From Candidatus Saganbacteria bacterium (GTDB lineage: Bacteria > Margulisbacteria > WOR-1 > O2-12-FULL-45-9 > XYB2-FULL-48-7): a stretch of 64,000 bases of DNA. Both the position numbers and the translations under genes were made by a program. Below are positions 3,821 through 62,249 of this stretch, one piece after another; position 1 is the first letter of the stretch; each line of letters starts with the position of its first letter. The notes below the pieces were generated by a model that saw only the letters and a list, made by a program, of their open reading frames with translations, was not told the origin of the DNA and made no database searches. The DNA is taken from contig JAFGHC010000039.1 in assembly GCA_016939335.1 (NCBI GenBank), positions 2,376-66,375 on the forward strand, in the 5' to 3' direction.

Positions 3821-3910
3821 AAATCCGAATATCGAATTTCGAAATCCGAAACAAGTTCGAAATTCGAATTTATAATTTCCTTCGAATTTCGTGTTTCGGA
3901 TTTCGAATTT
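3821..3910. repeat. family-1 palindromic repeat (AATCCGAATATCGAATTTCGAAATCCGAAA ... TTCGAATTTCGTGTTTCGGATTTCGAATTT)
   Basis: Left arm AATCCGAAATCGAA, core TTCGAAATTCGAATTT..CCTTCGAATTTCG and right arm TTTCGGATTT are shared with copies at 33522, 34561 and 36153; the arms are reverse complements. Confidence 0.7.
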
Positions 3911-7922: not shown

Positions 7923-8306
7923 TCAGTAATGATAGACGACCGCTTCTTTGCCCCAGAGCTCCTCCAGCTTGTAATATGCGCGTTCCTCTTCTTTTAAGAG
8001 ATGAACGACGATCGAACCAAGGTCAAGGATCAGCCAGCCAGAACCGGGCAGCCCCTCCCAGCGAAAATCCTTGAACCCATTCGCCCGCAGCCGCGCCTCG
8101 ATCTCTTTGGCGATCGCCCGCAGCTGCGGCTGCGAATCGGCGCCGCAGATCACCAGATAGTCGAGCAGCGCTGAACTTTGCCTGACGTCCAGGATCTTCA
8201 GGTCGAGCGCCTTTTTGCTCTCGGCCGCCCGGACGATCAGCTCCAGCGCAGCGGGCGCTTTTTTCCCGCCGGAGGCGGACCCGTCTTTGGCGGACTTCCT
8301 GGCCAC
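7923..8306 (-). CDS. rsfS: ribosomal silencing factor RsfS (Iojap family)
   Basis: 127 aa; segment LDYLVICGADSQPQLRAIAKEI...WLILDLGSIVVHLL is typical of RsfS. Confidence 0.8.
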   Translation of the reverse strand: MARKSAKDGSASGGKKAPAALELIVRAAESKKALDLKILDVRQSSALLDYLVICGADSQPQLRAIAKEIEARLRANGFKDFRWEGLPGSGWLILDLGSIVVHLLKEEERAYYKLEELWGKEAVVYHY

Positions 8307-8309
8307 TGA

Positions 8310-9194
8310 TCAGTTGGACGCCGCCAGCGTCCGGCTGGTCAGGTACAGGTCGGTGATACGCGCGATGTCCGCTTCGTTCGGTTTGTAATAATAGATCCCG
8401 TCGACCATCAGGTCGCTGCCGGGGAGCGTCGTCATGCTGATCTGGCCGAGCTCGCTGGCCGAACGCAGGGCCAGCGCCAGGCCGAGGATCTCCCGGGAAT
8501 TCAGGTTGGTGTTGATGCAGCTGACCATCGAAAGGAAGAGGGAAGGGGACTTGATCAGGTTCTCGCGCTTGATCATCTCGGCGGCCAGGTCGCGCAGGAA
8601 GTTTTGCTGCCGGCCGATCCGGGCGAAATCGTTGTCGGTGTGGCGGAAACGCAGGTAGCCCAAGGCCTGGCGGCCGTTGAGCTTTTGCAGGCCCGGCTGC
8701 AGGTCGATGTCGAGCCCGCCGGCGTAGTCGACGTAATACATCCTTTTTTCCACGTTGACCGTGATGCCGCCGAGCTTGTCGACGATCTTTTCGACCTCCG
8801 AGAGGTCGACGGTGATGTCATAGGGGATGGCGACGTGCAGCAGCTCTTCGGCGGTGCGGCGGGCGAGCTCACTGCCGCCGAAGGCGTAAGCGGCGTTGAT
8901 CTTATTAAGGCCGCGGTCCGGGATGATGACGACCGTGTCGCGCGGGATCGAAACGACCGCGGCCGATTTCTTGTCGGGATTGACGTGCAGGACCATGATC
9001 GTGTCCGACAGGCGGCCGCCGGTGTTATCGACGCCCAGGACGAGGAGGTTGGTCTCGCCGATGATCGGCAGCGACGGCGTCAGGCTCAGGAAGACGTCGA
9101 AAAGCGCCAGCCGGGCCGCCAGGCTGACGGTAAAGCCGACGAACGCCGCCAGGCAGATGAGGAACACCATGGTAACGATCAAAAACTTTTTCAT
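8310..9194 (-). CDS. LytR/CpsA/Psr (LCP) family cell-envelope phosphotransferase
   Basis: N-terminal TM segment, then VLGVDNTGGRLSDTIMVLHVNPDKKSAAVVSIPRDTVV, the LCP signature. Confidence 0.75.
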   Translation of the reverse strand: MKKFLIVTMVFLICLAAFVGFTVSLAARLALFDVFLSLTPSLPIIGETNLLVLGVDNTGGRLSDTIMVLHVNPDKKSAAVVSIPRDTVVIIPDRGLNKINAAYAFGGSELARRTAEELLHVAIPYDITVDLSEVEKIVDKLGGITVNVEKRMYYVDYAGGLDIDLQPGLQKLNGRQALGYLRFRHTDNDFARIGRQQNFLRDLAAEMIKRENLIKSPSLFLSMVSCINTNLNSREILGLALALRSASELGQISMTTLPGSDLMVDGIYYYKPNEADIARITDLYLTSRTLAASN

Positions 9195-13891: not shown

Positions 13892-13894
13892 GGT

Positions 13895-14584
13895 TTAATC
13901 GTTGGTCATGTAGAGATAATTGGCATAGCCGCGCAAATTACTTCCCAGGTCTCTCATTCCCGAGACAGCATCTATCACGGCTTTGTCCGGATCAGATAAG
14001 TTAAGTAGAATAGAATATTGAGCGCCGGTCGTGCCTATTACTCCGTATTCGCTGCAGGCGCAAAAATGGGCCCAAAAAGCATAAGTATTTCCTAATTCCC
14101 TGGCGATCTCTTGCTTCTTCGGCTCGAGCAGGGGGAACAACTCGCCAATTATGTCAGAGTCGGGCCTTCTATCTTCTTTTTTAGCGGTTCGGTGATTAAG
14201 GATCCCTTCCCAGACGTTCTTAGCCACCCAATATTTTGGGGCGCGAGGATCATCGGCCGGTTTCGACTCGGCAGCGTCAACAATCATCTGTTGCACAGTG
14301 GTTAAACGTTCTTCGGCATATTCCGCGATCAGGGCAGCCTTTCCCTCGATAGGTAAACTGCCAAAGGTACGCGATACCCGAAGGAACTCCGCTCGCATCT
14401 CTGGGTCACGCTCTGCAATATCGCAGCCAGCCTTGCTTGCAGTGGTAAAGGCCGCCTTTATTTCTTGTAGTGTGAGTTTAGGCGCAACCGCGGCCCCTCC
14501 GCCGGAAGCTTCCGAAGCTGCAAAACACATGGATCTGTAACTAGGCCTGTAGAAACCCGGATGCCATATCGTTTTCATTCCCAT
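13895..14584 (-). CDS. hypothetical protein in a low-GC segment
   Basis: 229-aa ORF in a segment of roughly 48-50% GC against about 63% for the neighbouring genes. No recognisable motifs. Confidence 0.5.
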   Translation of the reverse strand: MGMKTIWHPGFYRPSYRSMCFAASEASGGGAAVAPKLTLQEIKAAFTTASKAGCDIAERDPEMRAEFLRVSRTFGSLPIEGKAALIAEYAEERLTTVQQMIVDAAESKPADDPRAPKYWVAKNVWEGILNHRTAKKEDRRPDSDIIGELFPLLEPKKQEIARELGNTYAFWAHFCACSEYGVIGTTGAQYSILLNLSDPDKAVIDAVSGMRDLGSNLRGYANYLYMTND

Positions 14585-14794
14585 TTTATTCCTCCGTGCG
14601 GGTAGGGGGAGCCTTGAATTGTGCCCGCAGAAGAATATCAGAAACTTTGCTCAGGGATTTCACGCTTTTTTTGTGCCCTCAGTGTCCACGGTTAGCGATA
14701 GGTCTTCGTGCCTTGATGGTTAAATTACCCTTTCTGATTTTACCGCCAAGACGCAAAGGCACTAAGGGCACGAATAAGATGGTATAATTCTGTC

Positions 14795-16570: not shown

Positions 16571-16646
16571 ATATTGGTGAAGTGGGTTTACCCGTCAGGC
16601 AGGGGCTGGTATAATTGGAAAAGTCAAAAGTTAAAAGTCAAAATTT

Positions 16647-19358: not shown

Positions 19359-20273
19359 TTATCCTTTACTGCCGGCCCTAGCCGCTTCGATCAGGCGCTG
19401 AAAGATCAGTGCGATATCCTTATTAGGGCTGTAAAGAAAGCTGAATTGCGAGTGGTTTTCACGATATGGCCCGTAGATCGGCACGCCGGCTCTGTCAAAA
19501 CCATAAAAATAGACAGGGTCATACCACTTTTTATCCATGGTCAAGCCATTGGTATCCAGATGCTTAAGCGGAACGTCCGCTTCGACGGTCGCCCACCAGG
19601 CATCAAAGTTGTTCGACAGCCAGAGACGGAAGCCCGGGTTGGCCAATGAGAGGGAGACCACAGGCAAAATGACCGACTTGCTGTTATGCGAACCAACCAC
19701 ATTAAAGATGCTCCCCTTTGGATCGGCTGCCAGCCCGGCTGCTCGCAGATCGTCCAGCATATTGAACTGGGCCCTGGCGTTTGATGCCCAGGCGCTGCGG
19801 TTGCCGTCCGGGGGATTGCGTCTGATCCATTGCCCCAGACTCAAGCAATCTTTAGTTTCGCAGAGCGCCGCCGCGGCGACGAGCCGGCCGAAAACAGTTT
19901 CAAAATTCGCGGCGGTAGCAAAGCTGAACGTCGAGCGATCTTCTTCGTAATTTAGGTAGATCGGGAAATTGCTCCCTTCGTAGCGTCCCTCGGAACTGGC
20001 CGGCCGCATTTCTTTGGTGTCCAGCCTGATCTCCCGGGCGAGGCTGACGGAAACCTGCAGCTTGCCCCCGGGCAGTTCGTGCGCGTGCAGCGTCAGGCCG
20101 AGCTGATCGAGTAAGATGGTGGAAACAGGCGAAGAGAAATCCCCCCGGATGTAAGTTCCTGACTGGCAGGCGAACCCGCTGCCAGTCCTGTCAAGCAGAG
20201 TGACTGCGGCCTGCAGCCTCCTGCTTAGGTTTGATCCGGCCGGTTGTGTTGGAGCGGTCCGTTCCATTCTCAT
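19359..20273 (-). CDS. hypothetical protein, paralog A of a tandem pair
   Basis: 304 aa; starts MRMERTAPTQ and ends AARAGSKG. Shares YGPYRENxxQFS, ADPxS and WLSN motifs with the adjacent gene. Preceded by the RBS AAAACGGAGGAAATTTTATG. Confidence 0.6.
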   Translation of the reverse strand: MRMERTAPTQPAGSNLSRRLQAAVTLLDRTGSGFACQSGTYIRGDFSSPVSTILLDQLGLTLHAHELPGGKLQVSVSLAREIRLDTKEMRPASSEGRYEGSNFPIYLNYEEDRSTFSFATAANFETVFGRLVAAAALCETKDCLSLGQWIRRNPPDGNRSAWASNARAQFNMLDDLRAAGLAADPKGSIFNVVGSHNSKSVILPVVSLSLANPGFRLWLSNNFDAWWATVEADVPLKHLDTNGLTMDKKWYDPVYFYGFDRAGVPIYGPYRENHSQFSFLYSPNKDIALIFQRLIEAARAGSKG

Positions 20274-20289: not shown

Positions 20290-21171
20290 TTATCCTTTAC
20301 TGCCGACCTTGGCCGCGTCGATCACGCGCTGGCAGAGCGGCAGGAAATTGGCGCCGGCATAACGCAGGCTGAACTGTGCCCGGTTTTCCCTGTACGGACC
20401 GTAAACCGGCGCCGCGGCGTCGCGGAACCCTTTGAAAGCCGATGGCCTTGGCCGGTAAGCCCCCGCCCGACCCAGACGGAGAGCGATGGCCCGCGCGTTA
20501 ACCGACAGATGCGAGCGGAAAAGATCATTGGACAGCCAGCAGTCGAGTGCCAGGTTTGGCAGGGAAAAGCGGACCACGGGCAGGCCGAAAAGCTCCCGGC
20601 CGTAAAAGAGATCATGTTCGCCGATCACGCTGAAAACGCTCTCCGGATCGGCAGCAAGACAGGCGGCGCGCAGCCTCTCCAGCCTGGCGAACTGGCTTCC
20701 GGCTTTTGTTCCCGGGAGAACACACATGGTGTTCCGCTCTGACCATTCAGCCAGACTCAAACTGTGTTCGCCCTGGTGCCTCAAGGCCGCCGCCGCTGCC
20801 ATGACCAGCTGGCCGACGACGGTTACGGGGTTCCAATAGGTAGTAAAGCTGAAGCGCGAGTGATTTTGATGATAGTCCTGATAAAGTGGGAAGCTGTGGC
20901 CTTTATCGCCCGAAAGGTCTTGCTTCTCGGCCGGCAGCGTTCCCGTGGTATCGAAACTTATTTCCCTTCGCGTGGCGACCGACATCATCAGCCTTGGCGA
21001 GACGGCCTCTCGTATCGTTACTTGCAGCCCGACGCCCGGCAGCCAGAAGACCGCGTGGTTTCCGTGGATCATTGTTGAGCCGTGGTGGTCGAGGCCCGCG
21101 GCCGCTTGATGCAATCTATCCAGTTTTGCTCTTGATCTTAAAGTTGTTGTGCCGGTCCGTTCTATGTTCAT
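20290..21171 (-). CDS. hypothetical protein, paralog B of a tandem pair
   Basis: 293 aa; starts MNIERTGTT and ends AAKVGSKG. Same motifs and the same upstream leader (AAAACGGAGGGAATTTTATG) as paralog A. Confidence 0.6.
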   Translation of the reverse strand: MNIERTGTTTLRSRAKLDRLHQAAAGLDHHGSTMIHGNHAVFWLPGVGLQVTIREAVSPRLMMSVATRREISFDTTGTLPAEKQDLSGDKGHSFPLYQDYHQNHSRFSFTTYWNPVTVVGQLVMAAAAALRHQGEHSLSLAEWSERNTMCVLPGTKAGSQFARLERLRAACLAADPESVFSVIGEHDLFYGRELFGLPVVRFSLPNLALDCWLSNDLFRSHLSVNARAIALRLGRAGAYRPRPSAFKGFRDAAAPVYGPYRENRAQFSLRYAGANFLPLCQRVIDAAKVGSKG

Positions 21172-21252
21172 AAAATTCCCTCCGTTTTTATCGGGCAGTT
21201 TCCACCTTGAATTTATCTTAACCTTCCGGCGGAAATTTCACTTTTTTCAGAC

Positions 21253-21415
21253 AGGGGGCAAGAGAAAAGGCAAGGGAAGGCAAGGAAGGGCGGGATAAAG
21301 GGCAAGACAAAAGGCGCCTTCTGTTCCGCCTTTTGCCCCGCCTTCTGTCCCGCCCTCACGTGCCTTCATGTGCCGTTTGTCCCGCCTTCTGTCCCGCCCT
21401 CTGTCCCCATTGCAG
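21253..21415. repeat. family-5 purine-rich / pyrimidine-rich palindromic repeat
   Basis: Purine arm GGGGGCAAGAGAAAAGGCAAGGGAAGGCAAGGAAGGGCGGGATAAAGGGCAAGACAAAAGGCG. It is followed by its complement-like pyrimidine arm, with CCGCCTTCTGTCCCGCCCT repeated three times. Located in the divergent promoter region between paralog B and the Memo gene. Confidence 0.6.
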
Positions 21416-22741: not shown

Positions 22742-22744
22742 GAC

Positions 22745-22865
22745 AAAGTCAAAATTAAAAAGTCAAAAGTCAAAAGTGCAATTCAAAAGTAAAAAGTTGA
22801 CGAGCGTGGGTAAATTTTGAATTTTTACTTGTAATTTTGAATTTTTACTTTTGACTTTTGAATTA
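22745..22865. repeat. family-3 inverted repeat built from TCAAAAG and CAAAAGTAAAAA units
   Basis: Left arm AAGTCAAAATTAAAAAGTCAAAAGTCAAAAGTGCAATTCAAAAGTAAAAAG. The right arm is its near reverse complement (TAAATTTTGAATTTTTACTTGTAATTTTGAATTTTTACTTTTGACTTTTGAATT). AT-rich island in a GC-rich intergenic region. Confidence 0.7.
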
Positions 22866-22905: not shown

Positions 22906-23958
22906 ATGTTGAAAGTTGGTATTATCGGGGCGGGCGGCTACGCCGGGGCGACGCTGATCAATCTTTTGCTGCGCCACCCGGAAGCCGCGATCGTCTGGCT
23001 GATGTCGGAGGACGCGCACCAGGGGAAAAAGATCGCCGATCTCTATCCGCATTTGACGGGGCAACTCAACCTCGCCTGCCAGACGCTGGCCGACCTTGAC
23101 AAGAATTTAAGCTCCATTGATCTCGTTTTCCTGGCCCTGCCGCACGGCATCGCTATTAATTATGTCCCCAGGATCATTGACGCCGGCAAGCGGGTCGTCG
23201 ACCTCGGGGCCGATTACCGCTTCGCCGACAACGCCGTCTTTAAAAAATGGTACGGCCTCGAGCACGCGACGGAAAAATATTTAAAACAGGCGGTCTTCGG
23301 CCTGCCCGAGCTCTACCGCGCCGAGATCAAGAAGACAAAGCTCGTCGGCAACCCCGGCTGTTATCCGACCGCCGCGATCCTCGGCGCGGCGCCGCTCGTG
23401 AAGCACGGCCTGGTCGAGCTCGATTCGCTCATCGTCGACGCCAAATCGGGCGTTTCCGGCGCGGGGCGCGGCGTCTCGCTCAAGGCCCACTTCTGCGAGC
23501 GGAACGAGGGGCTCGAGGCTTACGCCGTCACCACCCACCGCCATATGGGGGAGATAGAATATCAGATCAGCAGAATATCAGGGGGCCAGATAAACGTAAC
23601 GTTCGTCCCCCACCTGACGCCGATGACGCGCGGGATTTTGGCGACGATCTATGCCAAAGTCAAAAGTCAAAAGTCAAAAGTCAAAAATGAGGAATTAACG
23701 CAATTATATAAAGATTTTTATAAGGGCGAGCCGTTTGTCCGGGTCTTTGACGATAAATTGCCTAACACCAAGTTCGTGGCGGGGACCAATTATTGCGACA
23801 TCGGCGTGCAGTACAACGAAGCGACCGGGCAGGTGATCGTCATTTCGGCGATCGATAACCTCGTGAAAGGCGCGGCCGGCCAGGCCGTCCAGAACATGAA
23901 CCTTCTCTGCGGCTTCCCGGAAACGACTGCGCTCCAGCAGCTCGCCGTCTACCCATGA
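22906..23958 (+). CDS. argC: N-acetyl-gamma-glutamyl-phosphate reductase
   Basis: MLKVGIIGAGGYAG Rossmann N-terminus and catalytic GNPGCYPTA motif. An in-frame AAGTCAA x4 tract lies at 23656-23688. Confidence 0.9.
   Translation: MLKVGIIGAGGYAGATLINLLLRHPEAAIVWLMSEDAHQGKKIADLYPHLTGQLNLACQTLADLDKNLSSIDLVFLALPHGIAINYVPRIIDAGKRVVDLGADYRFADNAVFKKWYGLEHATEKYLKQAVFGLPELYRAEIKKTKLVGNPGCYPTAAILGAAPLVKHGLVELDSLIVDAKSGVSGAGRGVSLKAHFCERNEGLEAYAVTTHRHMGEIEYQISRISGGQINVTFVPHLTPMTRGILATIYAKVKSQKSKVKNEELTQLYKDFYKGEPFVRVFDDKLPNTKFVAGTNYCDIGVQYNEATGQVIVISAIDNLVKGAAGQAVQNMNLLCGFPETTALQQLAVYP
23656..23688 (+). repeat. tandem heptanucleotide tract (AAGTCAA x4) inside the argC coding sequence
   Basis: AAAGTCAAAAGTCAAAAGTCAAAAGTCAAAAAT encodes KVKSQKSKVK in frame. 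The same heptamer builds the intergenic family-3 repeats at 16621 and 22745. Confidence 0.75.
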
Positions 23959-25061: not shown

Positions 25062-25197
25062 ACAATCAAATAACAAACAACAAATTACAGACAATACCAA
25101 ATTGCCGAAATTCTAATGTTCAAAACGGCGCTGTTTATTCACTTTGATCATTGTGATTTAGAAATTGTTTGTTATTTGATGCTTGTTATTTGTTATT
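25062..25197. repeat. family-2 AT-rich MITE-like element, copy A
   Basis: Terminal inverted repeats CAAATAACAAACAA ... TTGTTTGTTATTTGATGCTTGTTATTTGTTATTT. An internal GTTTGTTATTTGATGCTTGT 20-mer and ATACCAAATT are identical to copy B at 41323-41455. Confidence 0.7.
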
Positions 25198-25217
25198 TAT
25201 GAGGAATGGAGGCATGA

Positions 25218-26084
25218 ATGTTTAAGCATCTGATCAGACGCGCTAACGCGGTCCTGGAAGCTCTGCCGTACCTGACCAAGTTCAACGGCAAGACGATCGT
25301 CGTTAAATACGGCGGCGCGGCGATGCAGAGCGACGAGCTCAAACAGGGAGTGATCCAGGATATCGTCCTGCTCAAGATGTGCGGCATGGAGCCGATTCTT
25401 GTCCACGGCGGCGGCCCCGAGATCAACAAGTACCTGCGCAAGAAGGGGATCGAGCCGAAGTTCGTCGGCGGTTACCGCGTCACCGATAAGGAGACGATGA
25501 AGATCGTCCAGAAAGTGCTCGGCGAAAAGATCAACCAGCAGATCGTTTCGCTGATCAAAAAAGCGGGCGGCAAGGCCAAGGGGTTCTACGGCAAAAAGGG
25601 CCGCGTGATCAAAGCTTTCAAATACTGGAAGAAGGATGCCGAGGGGAACAAGCTCGACCTCGGCTTCACCGGCCAGGTCGGCGGCATCCGCTACCGCTAT
25701 CTCAACAAGTGGATGAAGCTCGGCTACATCCCGGTGCTGACCTCGATCGGGGTGGGGAAGCGCGGCGGCATCTACAATATAAATGCCGACAAGGCGGCGG
25801 CGGCGATCGCCGCCTACCTCAAGGCGGAAAAGCTGATCATGATGACCGACGTGCAAGGGGTCCTGGAGGGCGGCAAGCTGGTCTCCGAGCTGAACACCTA
25901 CCGGGCGGAGAAGATGATCAGGCAGGGCTCGATCTCCGGCGGCATGATCCCCAAGGTCAAGTCGTGCCTCTACGCCCTGCGCAAAGGGGTCAAGACCGCG
26001 CACATCATCGACGGCCGCCTGCCGCACTCGATCCTCCTCGAGCTCTTCACCGACCACGGCATCGGCACGATGGTAAGGAAATAG
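25218..26084 (+). CDS. argB: acetylglutamate kinase
   Basis: KTIVVKYGGAAM N-terminus; 288 aa. The 3' end is duplicated downstream (see the insertion finding). Confidence 0.9.
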   Translation: MFKHLIRRANAVLEALPYLTKFNGKTIVVKYGGAAMQSDELKQGVIQDIVLLKMCGMEPILVHGGGPEINKYLRKKGIEPKFVGGYRVTDKETMKIVQKVLGEKINQQIVSLIKKAGGKAKGFYGKKGRVIKAFKYWKKDAEGNKLDLGFTGQVGGIRYRYLNKWMKLGYIPVLTSIGVGKRGGIYNINADKAAAAIAAYLKAEKLIMMTDVQGVLEGGKLVSELNTYRAEKMIRQGSISGGMIPKVKSCLYALRKGVKTAHIIDGRLPHSILLELFTDHGIGTMVRK

Positions 26085-26092
26085 GGGGCAAG

Positions 26093-26284
26093 ATGACTTG
26101 GCTGTCTAAAATACTTCATCGCAGTGGCCGGCCCCAAATTCCGGTTGGCATTTCCCCGAAGCCGAGTATTGATAGCCCAAATTGTCCGCGCTCATTTCTG
26201 GAGGAACGCTATCTGAGCGATGGACGACATTTTAGTATTGCCCAAAGGATTACGAGTAACCCGACAGTAGTGGCAAATGATTAA
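26093..26284 (+). CDS. small hypothetical protein (63 aa), first gene of the inserted cassette
   Basis: ATG 3 nt after the argB-end direct repeat. Lower GC. Stop overlaps the next ATG (aaATGAttaa). Confidence 0.4.
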   Translation: MTWLSKILHRSGRPQIPVGISPKPSIDSPNCPRSFLEERYLSDGRHFSIAQRITSNPTVVAND

Positions 26285-26870
26285 CAAGGCTTCGATCAGC
26301 CGGGGTCAGGGGGAGTTGGCCGATCTGGCCCGCAGCCCGATCCATGATGTGAAAATACCGGTGGCCAAGAATTCAGCGGCAGGCGGCGATACACTACGAG
26401 AACTGGCGGTTGCGGCTGAGAAAGAGTTGCAGGATGTTAAATTGCCTGACTGGCAGGCCTGGCAGAAAGAGCCCAACAACAACATCTTAGCGGCTTGCGC
26501 CGCCCATCTGAATACCCCGCCGGATATTTTGGGGAGACTGGTAAAGGGCCCGAACTCGGGACGAATAGCCGTGCTTAATCCCCGGACGCCAGCGCAGGCA
26601 GTAGTTGATTATTTGAAGGCAAATGAGGAAAAGATAGCGGAAACAGAGCTTGGCTTGGCAGATCAATATTTTGTCGATCATTATCCGCTAGAAGAGACCC
26701 TGGTCGATCCAGCGGCGGTAAGGGAAATCGAGTTTTTATTGCAACTGGTCGGATCATTAGATAAGCGCTCGGACAGGCAAGACATTGAACAGAAATTGTC
26801 GACTGAAATGAAAGATCAGTTTGCGCAGCTGCGGCGAATTAATCAGCAAATGCTTGGTTCGCGCGCATAG
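26277..26870 (+). CDS. hypothetical protein (196 aa), second gene of the inserted cassette
   Basis: Translationally coupled to the preceding small ORF. No recognisable motifs. Its stop codon is the first triplet of the second copy of the argB-end repeat. Confidence 0.5.
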   Translation: MINKASISRGQGELADLARSPIHDVKIPVAKNSAAGGDTLRELAVAAEKELQDVKLPDWQAWQKEPNNNILAACAAHLNTPPDILGRLVKGPNSGRIAVLNPRTPAQAVVDYLKANEEKIAETELGLADQYFVDHYPLEETLVDPAAVREIEFLLQLVGSLDKRSDRQDIEQKLSTEMKDQFAQLRRINQQMLGSRA

Positions 26871-26900
26871 ACCACGGCATCGGCACGATGGTACGCAAAT

Positions 26901-27045
26901 AGGGGGCGGGACAAAAGGCAAGTAAGGGCAAGTGAGGGCGGAACAAACGGTGGGAAAGAGAAAAAGGGCGCCCTTTGTTCCGCCTTTTGTTTTGCCCTTT
27001 CCCCCTTTCCTTGCCCTCCCTTGCCCTTTGTTCCGCCCTTTCCCT
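26901..27045. repeat. family-5 purine-rich / pyrimidine-rich palindromic repeat
   Basis: GGGGGCGGGACAAAAGGCAAGTAAGGGCAAGTGAGGGCGGAACAAACGG ... GGGCGCC ... CCTTTGTTCCGCCTTTTGTTTTGCCCTTTCCCCCTTTCCTTGCCCTCCCTTGCCCTTTGTTCCGCCCTTTCCC. Central hairpin GGCGGAACAAA / TTTGTTCCGCC. Confidence 0.6.
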
Positions 27046-27089
27046 AATTCCCTGAAATTTCCCGGCCCCCCTGCCGAAGAATAACTGTT

Positions 27090-27608
27090 ATGGCATATAT
27101 GCGAATAGTCAGGGGGGATTCGGGAGACGCGATATTCCAGGCCAGGGCCGAGAGGTATTTCAATAGTTCGCGCTTTCCTCTGAACATGAAACATGAAGTG
27201 CTGGCCCTCTTCATGGGCAGGTGCCTGAATATCTCGAACTCTCCCCGTAGCGCCGTCCATCTGACCGGCGAGACCGTGGAGTCGCTGTCACGCAAATTTC
27301 CCGTAAGCCACCACGCCTTTGCCCAGACGGTACTGCTTGGCCCGGCAGACGGCTTTCTTTTTGAAATAACGCAGGCGGAATGGACCTTGAACCGGCACTG
27401 TTCTCTCTTTTCTTTACGGTTGCAGTATTCAAGCGGCGCCGACCTGGCCAAACCCCGGCAGGCCGCAGAAGTCGATTGGCCGGCGGTAGTAGCGAACCTC
27501 CGCGCTTACGTCATGTCTCGCATTCCGGAGTATTTGCGTTCCCAGACCCAGGCTTACTTCGAGGTTGAAAACAACGCCATCGATGGCCTGCTGATCGTCC
27601 CCCGCTAA
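27090..27608 (+). CDS. hypothetical protein
   Basis: 172-aa ORF with GC-rich codon usage; no recognisable motifs. Confidence 0.45.
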   Translation: MAYMRIVRGDSGDAIFQARAERYFNSSRFPLNMKHEVLALFMGRCLNISNSPRSAVHLTGETVESLSRKFPVSHHAFAQTVLLGPADGFLFEITQAEWTLNRHCSLFSLRLQYSSGADLAKPRQAAEVDWPAVVANLRAYVMSRIPEYLRSQTQAYFEVENNAIDGLLIVPR

Positions 27609-27614
27609 AAACTT

Positions 27615-27790
27615 TCTTCAACCACCCAACCCCTCTCCCCCTGGGAGAGGGCGTAAACGACAAAATATTGTATGACGAGAAATTGGGTGAGGGCTGTTCG
27701 CTTCTCCAGCTTCACCGCCTTTCCCCTCTCCCTCTGGGAGAGGGGGGCCGGTTTGTGTAAGCGGGTGAGGGCTGTCTCAAAGTGCCGCTA
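27615..27790. repeat. tandemly duplicated ~85-bp unit, each copy with a CCCCTCTCCC..GGGAGAGGG hairpin and a GGGTGAGGGCTGT motif
   Basis: Hairpins at 27630-27653 and 27723-27747; GGGTGAGGGCTGT at about 27685 and about 27764. Lies between the convergent 27090 gene and gltX. The hairpins are not followed by T-runs. Confidence 0.5.
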
Positions 27791-33520: not shown

Positions 33521-34560
33521 AAATCCGAAATCCGAAATCAGAAATACGAAATAATTTCGAAATTCGAAATTCGAATTTCCTTCGAATTTCGTTATTCGTA
33601 TTTCGGATTTGCGCGCTCTCATTAGTGGCGGCATCCGCTTTCGCCCTCGGCGAGGTCCCCGCCACTAGCGAAATAATCAACCCGTCGGTCGCTTACGTCC
33701 GGGAGTTCGGTTCGGGCGGCTCCGGTGAGCGCCAGTTCTACTTTCCGCAGGACGTCAGGTCGGCCCAGCTCGGCGACCTCGAGACGGCGCTCAATAATCT
33801 CTATATCGCCGACACCGGCAACAACCGGGTCCAGCGGCTCGACGAGAACGGCGGTTTCGTCTACCAGTTCGGCGGCTTCGGCCACGAGGACGGCAGGTTC
33901 AACACGCCGGTCGGCATCGCCGTCGACTTCAATTTCCGCCTTTATGTTTCGGAAAAAGACAGCGACCGGATCCAGCAGTTCGACATACGCGGCAACTTCC
34001 TCCGCGAGGTCGGCAGCGGCGAGGTCAACCTGCGCGCCCTCCAGGACCCGGCCGGCCTCGACGTCGACTCGCTCGGTTATCTTTACGTCGCCGATTCGGG
34101 CAACGACCGGGTGCTGAAGTTCGATCCCGCGGGCAATTTCGTCAGCGAAGTCGGCGGCTTCGGCATCGGCCCCGGCTTTCTCAACAAGCCGCTCGATGCG
34201 GCGGCCGACCGCGACCGCAACATTTACGTGGCCGACACCGGCAATAACCGGGTCCAGAAGTTCGATTTTGACGGCCGCCCCGTCTTCTCCTTCGGCCGCT
34301 CCGGCGGCGGGCCGGGCGAGCTGTCGGCCCCTTCGGCGCTCGCGGTCGACGACAAGTTCATTTATGTTTCCGACACCGGCAACGACCGCCTCTGCCTTTT
34401 TTCCCGGCAGGGGAAGTTCCTCCTTGCTTTCGGCCAGAAAGGGGCGGGGCCGGGCGAATTCAACGCGCCGCTCGGGCTCAGCCTCGGCCGGCAGGGGCGC
34501 ATTTACGTTGCCGACAGCGGCAATCACCGGATCGTTGAGCTTAGGGTAAAATGGCGCTAA
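33517..34560 (+). CDS. NHL-repeat six-bladed beta-propeller protein (secreted)
   Basis: Six repeats of the DxxGNIYVADTGNNRVQKFD type. ATG at 33517 overlaps the trpC stop. Codons 2-30 run through a family-1 repeat copy; alternative GTG at about 33622 within the hydrophobic segment. Confidence 0.7.
   Translation: MKIRNPKSEIRNNFEIRNSNFLRISLFVFRICALSLVAASAFALGEVPATSEIINPSVAYVREFGSGGSGERQFYFPQDVRSAQLGDLETALNNLYIADTGNNRVQRLDENGGFVYQFGGFGHEDGRFNTPVGIAVDFNFRLYVSEKDSDRIQQFDIRGNFLREVGSGEVNLRALQDPAGLDVDSLGYLYVADSGNDRVLKFDPAGNFVSEVGGFGIGPGFLNKPLDAAADRDRNIYVADTGNNRVQKFDFDGRPVFSFGRSGGGPGELSAPSALAVDDKFIYVSDTGNDRLCLFSRQGKFLLAFGQKGAGPGEFNAPLGLSLGRQGRIYVADSGNHRIVELRVKWR
33522..33610. repeat. family-1 palindromic repeat
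   Basis: AAATCCGAAATCCGAAATCAGAAATACGAAATAATTTCGAAATTCGAAATTCGAATTTCCTTCGAATTTCGTTATTCGTATTTCGGATTT. Confidence 0.7.
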
Positions 34561-34680
34561 AATCCGAATATCGAAATTCGAAATACGAAACGAATTCGAA
34601 ATCCGAAACAGAGAAAACCGTTTTAGAAATTCGAATTTTCCCCGTTTGTTTCGAGATTCGATATTCGAATTTCGGATTTA
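34561..34680. repeat. family-1 palindromic repeat (long copy)
   Basis: AATCCGAATATCGAAATTCGAAATACGAAACGAATTCGAAATCCGAAACAGAG...TTCGAGATTCGATATTCGAATTTCGGATTT. Confidence 0.7.
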
Positions 34681-36152: not shown

Positions 36153-36245
36153 ATCAGAATATTGAATATCGAAACTCGAAATAATTGGGGCAAAATTCGA
36201 ATTTCGAATTCCCTTCGAATTTCGAGATTCGGTTTTCGAATTTAG
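36153..36245. repeat. family-1 palindromic repeat
   Basis: AATCAGAATATTGAATATCGAAACTCGAAATAATTGGGGCAAAATTCGAATTTCGAATTCCCTTCGAATTTCGAGATTCGGTTTTCGAATTT. Confidence 0.65.
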
Positions 36246-41322: not shown

Positions 41323-41455
41323 ATCAAATCACAAATAACAAACAATACCAAATTACCGGAATTCGAATGACTAAAACAGGCAACGTTTATTTCATTGGGT
41401 AATTGTGGTTTGGGATTTGTTTGTTATTTGATGCTTGTGATTTGTTATTTTGTTA
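41323..41455. repeat. family-2 AT-rich MITE-like element, copy B
   Basis: CACAAATAACAAACAATACCAAATTACCGGAATTCGAATG...GTTTGTTATTTGATGCTTGTGATTTGTTATTT; aligns with copy A at 25062-25197. Confidence 0.7.
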
Positions 41456-41465
41456 TACTGGCCCC

Positions 41466-42779
41466 ATGGTTGGCATGGATAAACAGGCCGCTCTTGACGC
41501 TTGCCTGACTCGCCTCGGGATCAAACTTTCCGATGTGGTGGAGAAGTTTATCCATTCGGGCGGCCCCGGCGGCCAGAACGTCAATAAGGTCGCCAGCGGC
41601 GTCTATCTCAAGCATCTGCCGACCGGCCTCGAGGTCAAGATGAGCCGCGCCCGCTCGCAGGCGCTCAACCGCTTCCTCGCCTGGCGGCTGCTGGCCGACA
41701 AGCTCGCGGCCCGGCTCCTCGGCAAGAAGAGCGCCGAACGGGCGAAGGCCGAAAAACTCCGCCGCCAGAAGCGCCGCCGCTCCCGCCGCGCCAAAGAAAA
41801 AGTTTTGCGGGAGAAAAAGCTGACCGCCGAAAAGAAACGCCTCCGCCGGCGGCCGCTCTTCTTGCTCTGTCTGGCCGTCCTGCTGACCGCGGCTGCCGCC
41901 TGGGCGGCCGTCCCGTCACTGGCCGGCCTGATGCAGCGCGATTATCACGGACGCGATCTGCAGCTGAAAAAAGTCCTGGCCGAGAACAACGTTTACACCC
42001 GCTATCTCATCACTTACAAAAGCGATGACCTGACGATCTCCGGCATCATGAATTTGCCGAAGGGGAAGGGGCCGTTCCCCGTCCTGATACTTAACCACGG
42101 CTTCATCGATCCGAAAATCTATACGAACGGCCGCGGCTTGAAGCGCGAACAGGATTATCTGGCGCGCCGTGGTTATATAGTGATTCATCCCGATTACCGC
42201 AATCACGCGTTTTCCGATCAGGACCCGGACGACCTGGCCGGCTTCCGGCTCGGCTACGTCATCGACGCGATCAACTGCGTCATGGCGGTCAAGGGGAGCG
42301 ACAAGCCGTATTTCAATAAGGAGAAGATCGGGCTGCTGGGCCATTCGATGGGGGGCGGGGTCGTCCTGAACTTTCTGGCCGTGAAACCCGGGCTGGCCAA
42401 AGCGGCGGTCCTTTTGGCGCCGGTCAGCGCCGATTACCGCGACAATTTCACCCGCTGGCTCTGGCGGCGCAAGCGCCATCCGGAAGTGGCTGAAAGAATC
42501 ATCGCCGAATACGGCTCGCCCGAATCAAACCCCGCCTTCTGGGCCGGCCTCTCGGCCGTCAGTTACTTAAATAATGTTAAGGCGCCGGTCATGCTCAACC
42601 ACGGCACCGCCGACGAGTCCGTCCCCTTTGACTGGTCGGTCCGGCTGGAAAAAGAGCTGAAGGCCCGCGGCAAAAGCGTCGTCTTCTACCGGTATCCCGG
42701 CGAGCGCCACGAGTTCGGCCCGCAGTGGCCGCTCATGATGGCGCGGATCGTCAAGTTCTTTGACGGATATTTAAAATGA
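41466..42779 (+). CDS. in-frame fusion: ArfB-like GGQ-domain peptidyl-tRNA hydrolase, basic tail, TM helix, alpha/beta-hydrolase (S9/dienelactone-hydrolase-like)
   Basis: N-terminus SGGPGGQNVNKVASGVYLKH (class-I release-factor GGQ domain), then the basic tail KKSAERAKAEKLRRQKRRRSRRAKEKVLREKKLTAEKKRLRRR. Then hydrophobic PLFLLCLAVLLTAAAAWAAV, then a hydrolase with nucleophile elbow GHSMGG and a C-terminal HGTADESVP ... ERHEF triad region. No stop codon between the parts. Confidence 0.55.
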   Translation: MVGMDKQAALDACLTRLGIKLSDVVEKFIHSGGPGGQNVNKVASGVYLKHLPTGLEVKMSRARSQALNRFLAWRLLADKLAARLLGKKSAERAKAEKLRRQKRRRSRRAKEKVLREKKLTAEKKRLRRRPLFLLCLAVLLTAAAAWAAVPSLAGLMQRDYHGRDLQLKKVLAENNVYTRYLITYKSDDLTISGIMNLPKGKGPFPVLILNHGFIDPKIYTNGRGLKREQDYLARRGYIVIHPDYRNHAFSDQDPDDLAGFRLGYVIDAINCVMAVKGSDKPYFNKEKIGLLGHSMGGGVVLNFLAVKPGLAKAAVLLAPVSADYRDNFTRWLWRRKRHPEVAERIIAEYGSPESNPAFWAGLSAVSYLNNVKAPVMLNHGTADESVPFDWSVRLEKELKARGKSVVFYRYPGERHEFGPQWPLMMARIVKFFDGYLK

Positions 42780-48515: not shown

Positions 48516-48604
48516 GCCCGGCCTCGCCGCCCCCCGCTCCGCATCGAATCCTTGGCACTAAATTCTCCGCGCTGTGCTATAATCCCGGCCAGAGGTGAGC
48601 TTAA

Positions 48605-49636
48605 ATGAAAAAGAAAGCCCTGGTCTCCGCCGTCTTTGGCCCGGTAATGATCGTTGCCTGCGTTCTGCTCGTCGTTCACGGTTGCGGCCAGACGGGAGGG
48701 GGCGGCAGTGCCGGCATCCAGTCGATCAGTTTTTACAGCGTGGGGGCCAGCACCACCCCCGTTTTTGATCCGCTCGCTTCGGCCTCTGCTGCCATCTCCG
48801 GCGGCTGGGGTTCGGGCAATACCATGTATGCGCTTTATTACACGCTCCGGGAATATGTCAACAGCCGCGACGGCGGCACGATCGACCGGGCGAACCTTTA
48901 CCGTCTGCTCTACGACGTTGAAACGCTTTTCAGCGCCATGACCCACCAGGTCGTTGCCTTGCCGTCGGCGGAGGTGATCGCGCCGCCGTTCGATTTCGGC
49001 AATAATCTTGCCTATTCGGCCGCGCTCAATAACGAGACCGAAAAAATGGCCGCCGCCATGACCCAGGAAGGGAACGTTACTAAAGGGATCGTTTCCTGGA
49101 TCTGGACCGAAAGCTCCGACGGCCACAAAGAGTACGGCGTCCTCGAGGCGGTGATGGACCAGAGCACCAAGGATATCACCGTCGATTTCGTCTTCAGCGT
49201 CGATTACACACCGGGCGACACGACTTGCGATTACAACAACCGGACCCATATTTCCGGCAACTCCGATACGCACGCTTTCCAGTTCGTCCAGACGCTCGGC
49301 AACACCGGCGAGGCCGTCACCCAGCTGGTCGGCAAGGGCGTTTCCCGGGGGGCGGGGAACTATTTCCTCTTCAAGGTGCAGAGCAGCAACGGCGACGGCT
49401 TCGGTTCGCCGCTCTACGTGGTGCTGAGCGCCGAAGCGGACGAGGCGACGCTCAAGAACTTCGACGTTTCCGCCGAAGCGTATAGCAGCGCGGCCAGCCT
49501 GCCGGCCAGCGTGGCGTCTTATGTGAATTATGTCGAGAACACGCCGTTCTTCGCCTGGTCGGACCTTTTGGTCGATCTCAACGACCTTAATCGCGGCATC
49601 ACCGGCAAACAGGGCACGATCTATCTTAATTACTGA
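48605..49636 (+). CDS. hypothetical lipoprotein/secreted protein
   Basis: Signal peptide with lipobox-like LVVHGCG, then a Gly-rich linker GQTGGGGSAG; 343 aa; no known domain. Confidence 0.5.
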   Translation: MKKKALVSAVFGPVMIVACVLLVVHGCGQTGGGGSAGIQSISFYSVGASTTPVFDPLASASAAISGGWGSGNTMYALYYTLREYVNSRDGGTIDRANLYRLLYDVETLFSAMTHQVVALPSAEVIAPPFDFGNNLAYSAALNNETEKMAAAMTQEGNVTKGIVSWIWTESSDGHKEYGVLEAVMDQSTKDITVDFVFSVDYTPGDTTCDYNNRTHISGNSDTHAFQFVQTLGNTGEAVTQLVGKGVSRGAGNYFLFKVQSSNGDGFGSPLYVVLSAEADEATLKNFDVSAEAYSSAASLPASVASYVNYVENTPFFAWSDLLVDLNDLNRGITGKQGTIYLNY

Positions 49637-60870: not shown

Positions 60871-62249
60871 TCATCAATGATAAACAAATCGAGTCCTTAT
60901 TGGCCGGAGCAGCCAAATCCGGTCCATCATTAGTCGCTGATATCTTAGCCAAGGCCCGGGAGACTAAAGGGCTGACTCCGGCCGAAACCGCGGTTCTTTT
61001 GCAGTGCGAAGATAAAGGCTTGATCCAGCAGATACTCCAGGCCGCTAAGCATGTGAAAGAAGAAATATATGGCAAGCGGCTGGTCCTTTTTGCCCCGCTT
61101 TACGTGACGAACGAGTGTATTAACAATTGCCTTTATTGCGGTTTTCGCAAGGACAATACCAGTTTAACAAGGAAAACCCTCTCGCTGGACGAACTGGCGG
61201 AAGAAGTTACTATCCTTGAAGATATGGGGCACAAAAGAATCCTGATGGTTTTTGGGGAGCATCCCCGGCATTCGAACATCGATTTCATTGAAAAATCAAT
61301 TGCAAGGGCCTATGCCACCAAGTCAAAAAAGGGAGAAATGCGGCGGATAAATGTGAACCTGGCTCCGCTTTCCCTGGAAGATTTTAAGCGGCTGAAAGCG
61401 GCCAAGATCGGTACCTATCAGGCTTTTCAGGAGACCTACCACCGGGAAACTTATAAATACCTTCATCCTTCAGGCAAAAAAGCCGATTACGACTGGCGGG
61501 TGACCGCTTTTGACCGGGCCCAGCAGGCCGGGATCGATGATATCGGCGCCGGAGTTTTATTTGGCCTGTACGATTATAAATTCGAGGTCCTGGCCCTGCA
61601 GTACCATTCTATGCATCTCGAAAAGGAATATGGGTCCGGCCCGCACACCATTTCCGTCCCACGCCTCGAGCCGGCCTTAAACGCCCCGGCGGCGAATTGC
61701 CCGCCCCATCCCGTTTCTGACGAGGAGTTTAAAAAACTGGTGGCGATCATCCGCCTGGCCGTTCCTTACACCGGCATGATCCTTTCCACCAGGGAAGCGC
61801 CCGCCTTAAGGGATGAGCTGGTCGGCCTGGGCATTTCCCAGCTCTCCGCCGGCTCGCGAACCTATCCCGGCGGGTACAAGGACCAGCTGGCCCATGTCGA
61901 AGTCGAAGAGCAGTTCCAGATCGAAGATACACGGCCGCTCGATCAGGTTATTTATGACCTGTGCAAGATCGGCTATATTCCCAGCTTTTGCACGGCTTGT
62001 TACCGGTTGGGCCGGACCGGGGAAAATTTCATGGGGTTTGCCAAAACCGGCTTTATTCGCAACTTTTGCACCCCCAACGCTTTGCTGACATTTAAAGAAT
62101 ACTTGCTCGACTACGCTTTGCCGGCGACCCGGGAGCTGGGAGAGCGGGTCTTTAAAGAGCACCTGGACAAGTTGCCTGAAAATATCCGCGAAAAAACCTT
62201 GGCCAAGTGCCGGGAACTGGAGGCGGGAGAAAGGGACAGGTATTTCTAG
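60867..62249 (+). CDS. hydG: HydG-like radical SAM enzyme ([FeFe]-hydrogenase H-cluster maturase family; ThiH-related)
   Basis: N-terminal CINNCLYC radical-SAM cluster. C-terminal CTAC-(22 aa)-C (CX2CX22C), which distinguishes HydG from ThiH. 460 aa. Confidence 0.6.
   Translation: MIINDKQIESLLAGAAKSGPSLVADILAKARETKGLTPAETAVLLQCEDKGLIQQILQAAKHVKEEIYGKRLVLFAPLYVTNECINNCLYCGFRKDNTSLTRKTLSLDELAEEVTILEDMGHKRILMVFGEHPRHSNIDFIEKSIARAYATKSKKGEMRRINVNLAPLSLEDFKRLKAAKIGTYQAFQETYHRETYKYLHPSGKKADYDWRVTAFDRAQQAGIDDIGAGVLFGLYDYKFEVLALQYHSMHLEKEYGSGPHTISVPRLEPALNAPAANCPPHPVSDEEFKKLVAIIRLAVPYTGMILSTREAPALRDELVGLGISQLSAGSRTYPGGYKDQLAHVEVEEQFQIEDTRPLDQVIYDLCKIGYIPSFCTACYRLGRTGENFMGFAKTGFIRNFCTPNALLTFKEYLLDYALPATRELGERVFKEHLDKLPENIREKTLAKCRELEAGERDRYF

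Follow-up and report, generated by a model that had tools for sequence, protein, structure and literature searches.

A single-gene cassette flanked by direct repeats at the 3′ end of argB in Saganbacteria

The argB locus and its direct repeat

In the window – the whole stretch of DNA that was analysed, 64,000 nucleotides of the Candidatus Saganbacteria contig JAFGHC010000039.1 – the acetylglutamate kinase gene argB is followed immediately by a 780-bp cassette that lies between two nearly identical copies of the end of argB. By ArgB comparison, the organism belongs with the Saganbacteria/Margulisiibacteriota (WOR-1) metagenome-assembled genomes (MAGs), to whose ArgB proteins its own is 75–94% identical, and the operon order at the target site is argC–argJ–argB. 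The evidence set out below suggests that the cassette is probably a horizontally acquired, non-autonomous and promoterless single-gene unit, which entered by recombination within the conserved last 10–16 codons of argB. The features of the locus are the following, where ORF stands for open reading frame, GC3 for GC content at third codon positions, L082 for an independent Logan assembly of the same sample and P0002 for a homologous protein encoded at a second locus.

25218..26084, plus strand: argB, acetylglutamate kinase, 288 aa, the target gene (Pfam AA_kinase, E 1.5e-45)
26052..26089, plus strand: repeat copy 1, resembling a left attachment site (attL-like); the argB tail in service (…DHGIGTMV-AGG-AAA-TAG) followed by GGGGC
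26090..26869, plus strand: the cassette proper, 3 nt and then one interrupted gene; GC 0.513, foreign GC3
26093..26284, plus strand: ORF1, 63 aa, N-terminal fragment of the cassette gene; ~50% identity to P0002 residues 1–64
26276..26276, plus strand: frameshift site, one extra A (GCA-A-ATG); same base in L082
26277..26870, plus strand: ORF2, 197 aa, C-terminal three-quarters of the cassette gene, with LRV-type helical repeats; 48–49% identity to P0002 residues 66–256
26870..26907, plus strand: repeat copy 2, attR-like; the putatively displaced argB tail (…DHGIGTMV-CGC-AAA-TAG-GGGGC), running into native downstream DNA
26900..27047, plus strand: long native hairpin, minimum free energy −83 kcal/mol, z = −5.3, 0/200 shuffles as stable

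The 38-mer GACCACGGCATCGGCACGATGGTAAGGAAATAGGGGGC at 26052–26089, which takes in the last 11 codons of argB (stop included), recurs at 26870–26907 with 36 of its 38 positions identical, exactly as the original prediction had described it; no further copy was found in the 64-kb window. A chance origin, named beforehand as a possible refutation, found no support, as none of 100 dinucleotide shuffles of the window gave any 38-nt repeat match. Both mismatches fall in a single Arg codon – AGG in copy 1 against CGC in copy 2 – and are silent, and each copy encodes the peptide DHGIGTMVRK and a stop codon, followed by GGGGC, which upholds the proposal that the repeat regenerates the ArgB C-terminus. 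Among random double substitutions, the peptide is preserved in 9.5%, and changes that are both silent and confined to the same codon make up 0.05%. No ORF of at least 40 aa reads through copy 2. An assembly artefact was considered and excluded: no exact block within the repeat exceeds 24 nt, which is below the assembler k; L082 (SRR13394437) is 100% identical to window positions 25171–27752; and a diverged but analogous structure is found in another sample.

The cassette holds one interrupted gene

As had been noted from the letters, the intervening DNA is poorer in GC than its surroundings (0.513 over 780 bp, against 0.592 in argB and 0.596 in the window). GC3 is 0.42 in ORF1 and 0.56 in ORF2, compared with 0.76–0.88 in the flanking genes, and a GC3-based gene call skips the stretch altogether.

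Two genes coupled by an ATGA overlap had been predicted here. The first ORF does have the 63 aa ascribed to it, but the second has 197 rather than 196, and the overlap between them, ATGATTAA, is 8 nt long (26277–26284). Nor are they two genes: both correspond to parts of one gene that is intact on a second contig, L081, where it encodes the 256-aa protein P0002. Removal of the A at 26276 yields a continuous 258-aa ORF whose end-to-end alignment to P0002 is gap-free at the junction and has 120/256 identical residues, and ORF1 has the motifs M-x-W-x-S-x-I and PRSFLEERY in common with it. Judged by this alignment, ORF1 and ORF2 are the two parts of a single ~258-aa gene that an insertion of 1 nt has interrupted, and the gene carried by the window cassette – its cargo – is already inactivated by the frameshift. 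The stop codon of ORF2, said to be supplied by the repeat, draws only the last base of its TAG (26870) from it, the remaining bases lying outside.

There is almost no room in the cassette for anything other than this gene. Only 3–5 nt precede the ATG and 0–5 nt follow the stop codon; in the window, ORF1 starts 8 nt past the argB stop and is preceded by GGGGG, which resembles a Shine–Dalgarno sequence. Neither a promoter nor a terminator was found at the cassette ends, and neither terminal inverted repeats nor an inverted repeat at the 3′ end. Since the cassette has no promoter or terminator of its own, the cargo is presumably expressed from the arg operon, with termination at the native hairpin (26900–27047). 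This hairpin was probably the original argB terminator, which now serves the cassette. The TAG-GGGGC of repeat copy 2 forms its base, and another member of the same hairpin family, at 21246–21413, likewise begins GGGGGCAAGAG. The family motif, GGCGGRACARARGG, occurs 12 times in the window, against 0.29 expected.

The hairpin family is G/C-strand-asymmetric and intergenic, and is built of ~12-nt units; further copies lie at 784–797 and 62222–62235. Its copies sit between convergent or divergent genes and are probably terminators.

A second locus and its empty sites

The gene for P0002 lies on the 19-kb contig L081, which was recovered from three samples (the one used here being SRR22216448, as compared with SRR13394437 for the window and L082). 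There it directly follows argJ–argB, its ATG being 10 nt past the argB stop and behind a GGAGGT Shine–Dalgarno sequence, and a second, degenerate argB tail (…LEYFAEHSIGTMVKK and a stop codon) begins 6 nt after the P0002 stop. The resulting direct repeat is 53 nt long and 72% identical, with a spacing of 834. The downstream genes differ, a biotin-lipoyl protein gene and efp in L081 and gltX in the window. A core, ATCGGnACGATGGT, is common to all four tails, and both repeats extend 5 nt beyond the argB stop, but their left boundaries differ (38 nt in the window, 48 nt or more in L081). Attempts to extend the window repeat to the ‘LELFT’ codons, or to find homology between the cassette ends of the two loci, gave nothing significant (p = 0.1–0.9).

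Of 93 sequences inspected, a second tail core is present in the window/L082 and in L081 and in no other. Tandem paralogues aside, no other gene-tail duplication was found in the window or in ~90 fetched loci. At least 168 ArgB clusters were retrieved in the comparison with Saganbacteria/Margulisiibacteriota, and the window species is represented in the collection by the same contig only. One partial-coverage ArgB match, P0254, was followed up and proved to be nothing but a frameshifted ArgB.

The original prediction had called for a search for empty sites in related genomes, and clean, cassette-free argB ends were found for both loci. The cassette is absent from L001–L015, L087 and L088. In L003 and L004, argB abuts a convergent gltX; in L001, the 199-bp gap between argB and gltX holds a different small ORF (51 aa); and in L002, L011, L012, L087 and L088, argB is followed by unrelated small genes. 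None of these loci has the cassette or a duplicated tail. L087 and L088 have an ArgB 94% identical to that of the window. For L081, the corresponding empty sites are L089–L092, cassette-free loci with the same synteny and an ArgB that is 95% identical in amino acids and 88% in nucleotides; here the stop codons of argB and the biotin-lipoyl gene are 3 nt apart, and the single tail aligns to both L081 copies. In a tree of ArgJ and ArgB, the closest neighbour of the window is its sister L001 (94% bootstrap), with L081 placed in another group, so that the two carriers are, by this phylogeny, not sister taxa and are separated by cassette-free genomes.

The interval between argB and gltX (26085–27776 in the window) is also a variable spot more generally. 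The two genes are 0 bp apart in L003 and L004; what separates them elsewhere is the 51-aa ORF (L001), a protein of 295 aa (L002), a pair of small ORFs on the minus strand (L011), one short ORF (L012), Ppnp (L088) or ~3.3 kb that include TauE and a nitroreductase (L087). In the window, it also contains ORF3 (27090–27608, 172 aa, GC3 0.68), with no match in Pfam, NCBIfam, PHROGs or PADLOC, or in the loci of relatives.

Which tail is native

The cassette-free relatives make it possible to ask which of the two tails belongs to the host. Across argB upstream of the tail, L081 and L089 are identical at a proportion of 0.715 of third positions. The displaced copy 2 of L081 matches L089 at 9/14 third positions, which is at this background, whereas the attached copy 1 matches at 5/14 (binomial P = 0.0057), all of the differences being silent; the density of mismatches, 11.5% before the repeat, is 23.8% from its first position, L081 nt 2278, onward. 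With the displaced copy at background and the attached copy below it, these synonymous positions indicate that the L081 cassette brought its own argB tail – now the C-terminus of ArgB – and displaced the native one. The replacement changes in copy 2 (L to Y, T to A, D to E, G to S and R to K) are as expected of a relic.

In the window, the two tails differ at the Arg codon only. It reads CGC in L087, CGA in L088 and CGG in L001; copy 2 has CGC, as in L087, and the attached copy has AGG. Because the attached copy in L081 is foreign at synonymous sites and AGG is unlike the CGC, CGA or CGG of the relatives, the cassette would, by analogy, also have brought window copy 1, or at least the part of it that begins with the Arg codon.

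The window repeat is also young. Third positions are only 60–70% identical between the window and its nearest relatives, and the repeat, with 2/38 differences, is on this measure far younger than the split from them. It follows that the two insertions were separate events, unless gene conversion homogenised the window copies.

The cargo protein family

Relatives of the cargo are exceedingly few. A word-indexed search of 5.8 billion clusters with ORF2 returned only ORF2 itself (P0001) and P0002 (256 aa, 48% identity), and an exhaustive HMMER profile search of 1.84 billion representatives likewise returned only these two at E < 1e-30. One distant full-length homologue, P0017, was found at E 6e-13, with 27% identity to P0002; its gene is not beside argB but after an outer membrane protein gene, lacks a flanking repeat and has a low GC3. 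The remaining profile matches are hundreds of LRV-repeat proteins, aligned to the central repeats only, and a metagenome scan added one unrelated LRV protein, L083. Neither relatives of the cargo nor a phage-type attachment site (attP) resembling an argB tail were found in viral contigs, plasmids or phages, and the contexts of P0006 and P0067 are ordinary chromosomal ones or too short. The GC3 of the cargo is low relative to the host in all three genomes that hold a family member.

The statement that neither ORF has recognisable homology needs amending for ORF2, which has both its homologue P0002 and a weak, sub-threshold match to the Pfam LRV family (PF01816): ORF2 scores 20.3 bits (E 7e-4), P0002 20.1 and P0017 23.4, the gathering cut-off being 21.6. 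AlphaFold gives a confident, all-alpha solenoid (predicted local-distance difference test score, pLDDT, 81.5; predicted template-modelling score, pTM, 0.74), for which a fold search of the PDB returned designed armadillo repeats only, at E 6.5e-3 or weaker; a PDB sequence search with the cargo gave no match. No toxin, antitoxin or defence match was obtained in PADLOC, PHROGs, Pfam or NCBIfam, and no LAGLIDADG, GIY-YIG, HNH, PD-(D/E)XK or other enzymatic match in Pfam, NCBIfam, PHROGs or the PDB sequences. Most likely, the cargo is carried along as a passenger and serves in binding or as a scaffold.

The locus that encodes P0017 has a composition of its own. On contig L084, the gene (8001–8750) has a GC3 of 0.46, against 0.76–0.79 in its neighbours, and is preceded by a 64-nt spacer (7937–8000) with a coding-like GC3 that reads VKILGFDTLRLIIFGTGGG…, perhaps the remains of a gene that was disrupted when the P0017 gene inserted. 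The contig stops 293 nt past the gene, so that only the upstream side is visible.

How the cassette may have entered argB

The original prediction saw at this site the footprint of an integration into a gene 3′ end without an integrase, and this description has gained support from the empty sites, from a second locus with the same tail duplication and from the foreign tail in L081. No integrase, recombinase or transposase was found in the 20 neighbouring genes within ~18 kb that were scanned (20 of the ~60 genes in the window), all of which are housekeeping genes, and the one ORF of the cassette has no recombinase match in Pfam, PADLOC, PHROGs or NCBIfam. Of the two origins then proposed, a decayed element now seems less likely than a minimal unit of cargo plus tail: the same unit occurs in two genomes, with cargo proteins 47–49% identical, and two independent decays to an identical one-gene remnant would be improbable.

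We therefore favour, as the probable explanation given at the outset, a mobile unit that would consist of a replacement argB tail, a Shine–Dalgarno sequence and one ORF. On arrival, the tail borne by the cassette would become the working C-terminus of ArgB, keeping the essential gene intact; the cargo ORF, starting 8–13 nt past the argB stop, would be translated from the arg operon transcript; and the native tail, pushed to the far side, would survive as a direct repeat and decay. Recombination between the tails would delete the cassette precisely and restore the empty site.

As to what drives insertion, a route that needs no enzyme from the element is slightly favoured over a site-specific recombinase supplied in trans, which would make the cassette a module akin to a cis-mobilisable element (CIME). 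On the former route, DNA from a carrier would recombine on its left side over a long homology arm, the highly conserved body of argB, and on its right side over the displaced tail, acting as a short arm or as microhomology. Homology-facilitated illegitimate recombination occurs in transformable bacteria, and such recombination (or plain homologous recombination) after DNA uptake is one conceivable variant; a Campbell-type crossover of an excised circle of tail plus gene is another. The core ATCGGnACGATGGT has no obvious dyad symmetry by eye, and the duplicated segment in the window reaches 5 nt into a hairpin family specific to that genome, which suggests a closely related donor. This overlap, the differing left boundaries, the lack of an obvious dyad and the absence of arm-type DNA make a fixed-site integrase less likely.

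Several observations weigh against this explanation. The search for an integrase covered only the 64-kb window, and 20 of its ~60 genes; neither a circular form nor an excision junction, a donor or a recombinase has come to light; and with two cassette loci (and one duplicate assembly) the statistics are thin. In L081, the scan-wide breakpoint permutation gives p = 0.085, and identical runs between the foreign and native tails are at most 8 nt, too short for ordinary RecA recombination, though such lengths fit a site-specific recombinase with a short overlap or a microhomology join. In the window, no mosaic betraying an imported 3′ segment of argB is detectable (p = 0.22), and the tails are nearly identical, GGGGC included, which is also compatible with a target duplication.

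Such a duplication, in which an integrase or transposase made staggered cuts 38–53 nt apart so that both copies stem from the recipient, is nevertheless very unlikely. It would account for the 36/38 identity of the window copies, for the GGGGC in each, which is the first bases of the native hairpin family, and for repeats that end 5 nt past the stop codon at both loci. It would leave unexplained why silent sites in the attached L081 copy have diverged further than those elsewhere in argB (P = 0.0057), why the duplicated lengths are unequal and why both window differences are silent and in one codon, and it lacks the terminal inverted repeats and, in the 20 genes scanned, the nearby transposase or Cas1-like gene that might be looked for. 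Somewhat less improbable, but decidedly unlikely all the same, is an ancient insertion in a common ancestor that was inherited vertically and precisely lost several times, with gene conversion keeping the window repeats alike. A pair of direct repeats readily permits a precise deletion, after which the empty site is perfect, the 47–49% identity of the cargo proteins is compatible with long residence, and a loss in L089 that spared copy 2 would make this copy look ‘native’. On the ArgJ+ArgB tree, however, at least 4–5 independent losses would be needed; GC3 has not been ameliorated in any host; the window tails differ at 2/38 positions, against a third-position difference of 30–40% to the nearest relatives, and conversion of 38 nt is inefficient. 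A copy 2 displaced long ago would, moreover, have decayed before L089 inherited it, yet the L089 tail encodes a perfect LELFTDHGIGTMVRK.

The cargo itself bears on two further alternatives. It could direct a break in cassette-free argB tails, to be repaired from a copy that bears the cassette, the tail of the cassette being a synonymous variant that resists cleavage, as the architecture – the same as that of the mobile ORFs (mORFs) of fungal mitochondria, in which tail lengths vary between events (PMC3630166) – and the silent AGG/CGC difference would suit. The cargo has no match to any of the endonuclease families named above, its confident model is an all-alpha solenoid matching designed armadillo repeats only and the window copy is frameshifted, all of which place self-homing a little below even target duplication in our estimation. 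More broadly, the LRV-repeat cargo might be a homing factor of a new kind, or these might be the first two of a bacterial class of minimal ‘tail-swapping’ cassettes, promoterless single genes whose sole determinant of mobility would be a portable replacement for the conserved 3′ end of an essential host gene and which would spread between species without an element-encoded enzyme; either way, the cassette would be a bacterial counterpart of the mitochondrial mORFs, a proposal that we regard as speculative and unlikely, if less so than any of the alternatives just weighed. A two-gene toxin–antitoxin or abortive-infection module, finally, which the small ORF overlapping a larger one had called to mind in the original prediction, was rejected as barely credible: the ORFs are halves of a gene that is intact in L081, none of the four databases searched for such functions gave a match and the predicted fold is a generic alpha-solenoid of the repeat-scaffold type.

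Other repeats and variable DNA in the window

A ~130-nt, AT-rich element occupies the argJ–argB spacer (25065–25198), with inverted-repeat arms at 25067–25095 and 25164–25192; a second copy, ~80% identical, lies at 41325–41450, upstream of an ORF at 41403, and there is no Rfam match to it, the only Rfam matches in the window being four tRNAs. As argJ and argB abut in L001, L003, L004 and L087, the element looks like a small lineage-specific insertion, similar to a miniature inverted-repeat transposable element or a repetitive extragenic palindromic sequence. A third family of low-GC intergenic repeats, with AAATTCGAAAT-type units, has eight copies in the window, including 928–978, 3828–3910, 33528–33610, 34574–34679 and 36193–36243. 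Arrays of the heptamer CAAAAGT lie upstream of argC (22744–22798), at 16612–16646 and inside argC (23641–23703), where the array encodes …KVKSQKSKVKN…, which suggests a small repeat insertion tolerated in a housekeeping gene.

The ORF downstream of the second ~130-nt copy (41403–42779, 458 aa) combines an RF-1 domain of the peptidyl-tRNA hydrolase/ArfB-like kind (residues 39–133) with a prolyl-oligopeptidase/alpha-beta-hydrolase domain (218–457); this is either a fusion of an unusual kind or the result of a wrong start call that ran two genes together, and its 5′ end overlaps the repeat at 41325–41450. Tandem paralogues of 304 and 293 aa, which belong to no Pfam family and have a GC3 of 0.66–0.68, lie on the minus strand at 19359–20273 and 20290–21171. 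Besides the cassette, the GC3-based gene call skips 13892–14794 (containing a 229-aa ORF at 13895–14584 with no Pfam match) and 48516–49529; together with the tandem paralogues, these two stretches may be other recently acquired DNA.

Relation to known systems

One ORF and the tail of a gene make up the whole element, and two divergent genomes from an uncultivated phylum (Saganbacteria/WOR-1) carry it at the same site. If the explanation favoured here is right, a short conserved coding stretch would suffice as a portable landing pad, allowing a very cheap form of single-gene transfer between species that current genome annotation overlooks. With two Sequence Read Archive runs, defined junctions and defined empty sites, the case is a concrete and testable one.

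Prophages, ICEs (integrative and conjugative elements) and genomic islands integrate at the 3′ ends of conserved genes and regenerate them, with an integrase that is carried by the element or is visible in its ancestry. The cassette differs from these tyrosine-recombinase elements in having no integrase gene beside its att-like repeats and in consisting of 780 bp with a single, non-recombinase ORF. Closer to it are the CIMEs, defined as att-flanked integrative elements without genes for integration or transfer (PMC5704250). Flanking att motifs that comprise a host copy and an element copy have also been described, for tRNA-targeting elements (bioRxiv 10.1101/2020.12.28.424599). As in a CIME, the cassette is flanked by direct repeats that include the 3′ end of the target (38 nt in the window, 53 nt in L081), the target is kept intact, and genes for an integrase, excisionase or transfer are missing. 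CIMEs, however, are decayed ICEs or integrative and mobilisable elements (IMEs), usually of several kb, and rely on the integrase of a related element, whereas the cassette has 780 bp and one ORF, behaves in two genomes as a persistent unit rather than as a remnant, and has repeat boundaries that differ between loci; neither a cognate integrase nor a parent ICE or IME was found for it in the 20 neighbouring genes or among viral contigs, plasmids and phages.

The likeness to mORFs lies in the order of parts. First described in Allomyces atp6, mORFs of fungal mitochondria carry a foreign C-terminus of atp6, atp9, cox2 or nad3, which displaces the native C*-terminus; most differences between the inserted and the native tail are silent, and how much of the tail is replaced varies between cases (PMC3630166). 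The same order – host gene with a foreign C-terminal segment, ORF, displaced native tail – is seen in L081. mORFs, on the other hand, reside in organelle genomes and encode LAGLIDADG or GIY-YIG endonucleases that drive their mobility, whereas the cargo here is an alpha-solenoid protein without a nuclease signature, encoded on a bacterial chromosome by an ORF that has no in-frame fusion with the host gene. Integron cassettes, in turn, resemble the element in being promoterless single ORFs with almost no non-coding DNA, read from an upstream host promoter, and in having a recombination handle at the 3′ end, with any recombinase encoded elsewhere; the element has no imperfect palindrome of the attC type, no attI/intI platform nearby and no array, and its handle is a copy of the coding end of a host gene.

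The cargo, for its part, is related to LRV and HEAT/armadillo proteins by its LRV-type motifs (…NTPxDILxxL… and …NPRTP…) and its predicted alpha-solenoid, but the window protein and P0002 fall just under the LRV gathering threshold (20.1–20.3 against 21.6 bits), and the N-terminal (MxWxSxI, PRSFLEERY) and C-terminal (DHYPLEET, LDKRS-DR) segments are confined to three proteins among the 1.84 billion representatives. Lacking, as far as the searches above reach, a defining feature of CIMEs, of mORFs and of integron cassettes alike, the element is filed here with the broader group of integrative elements that regenerate the 3′ end of their target gene.

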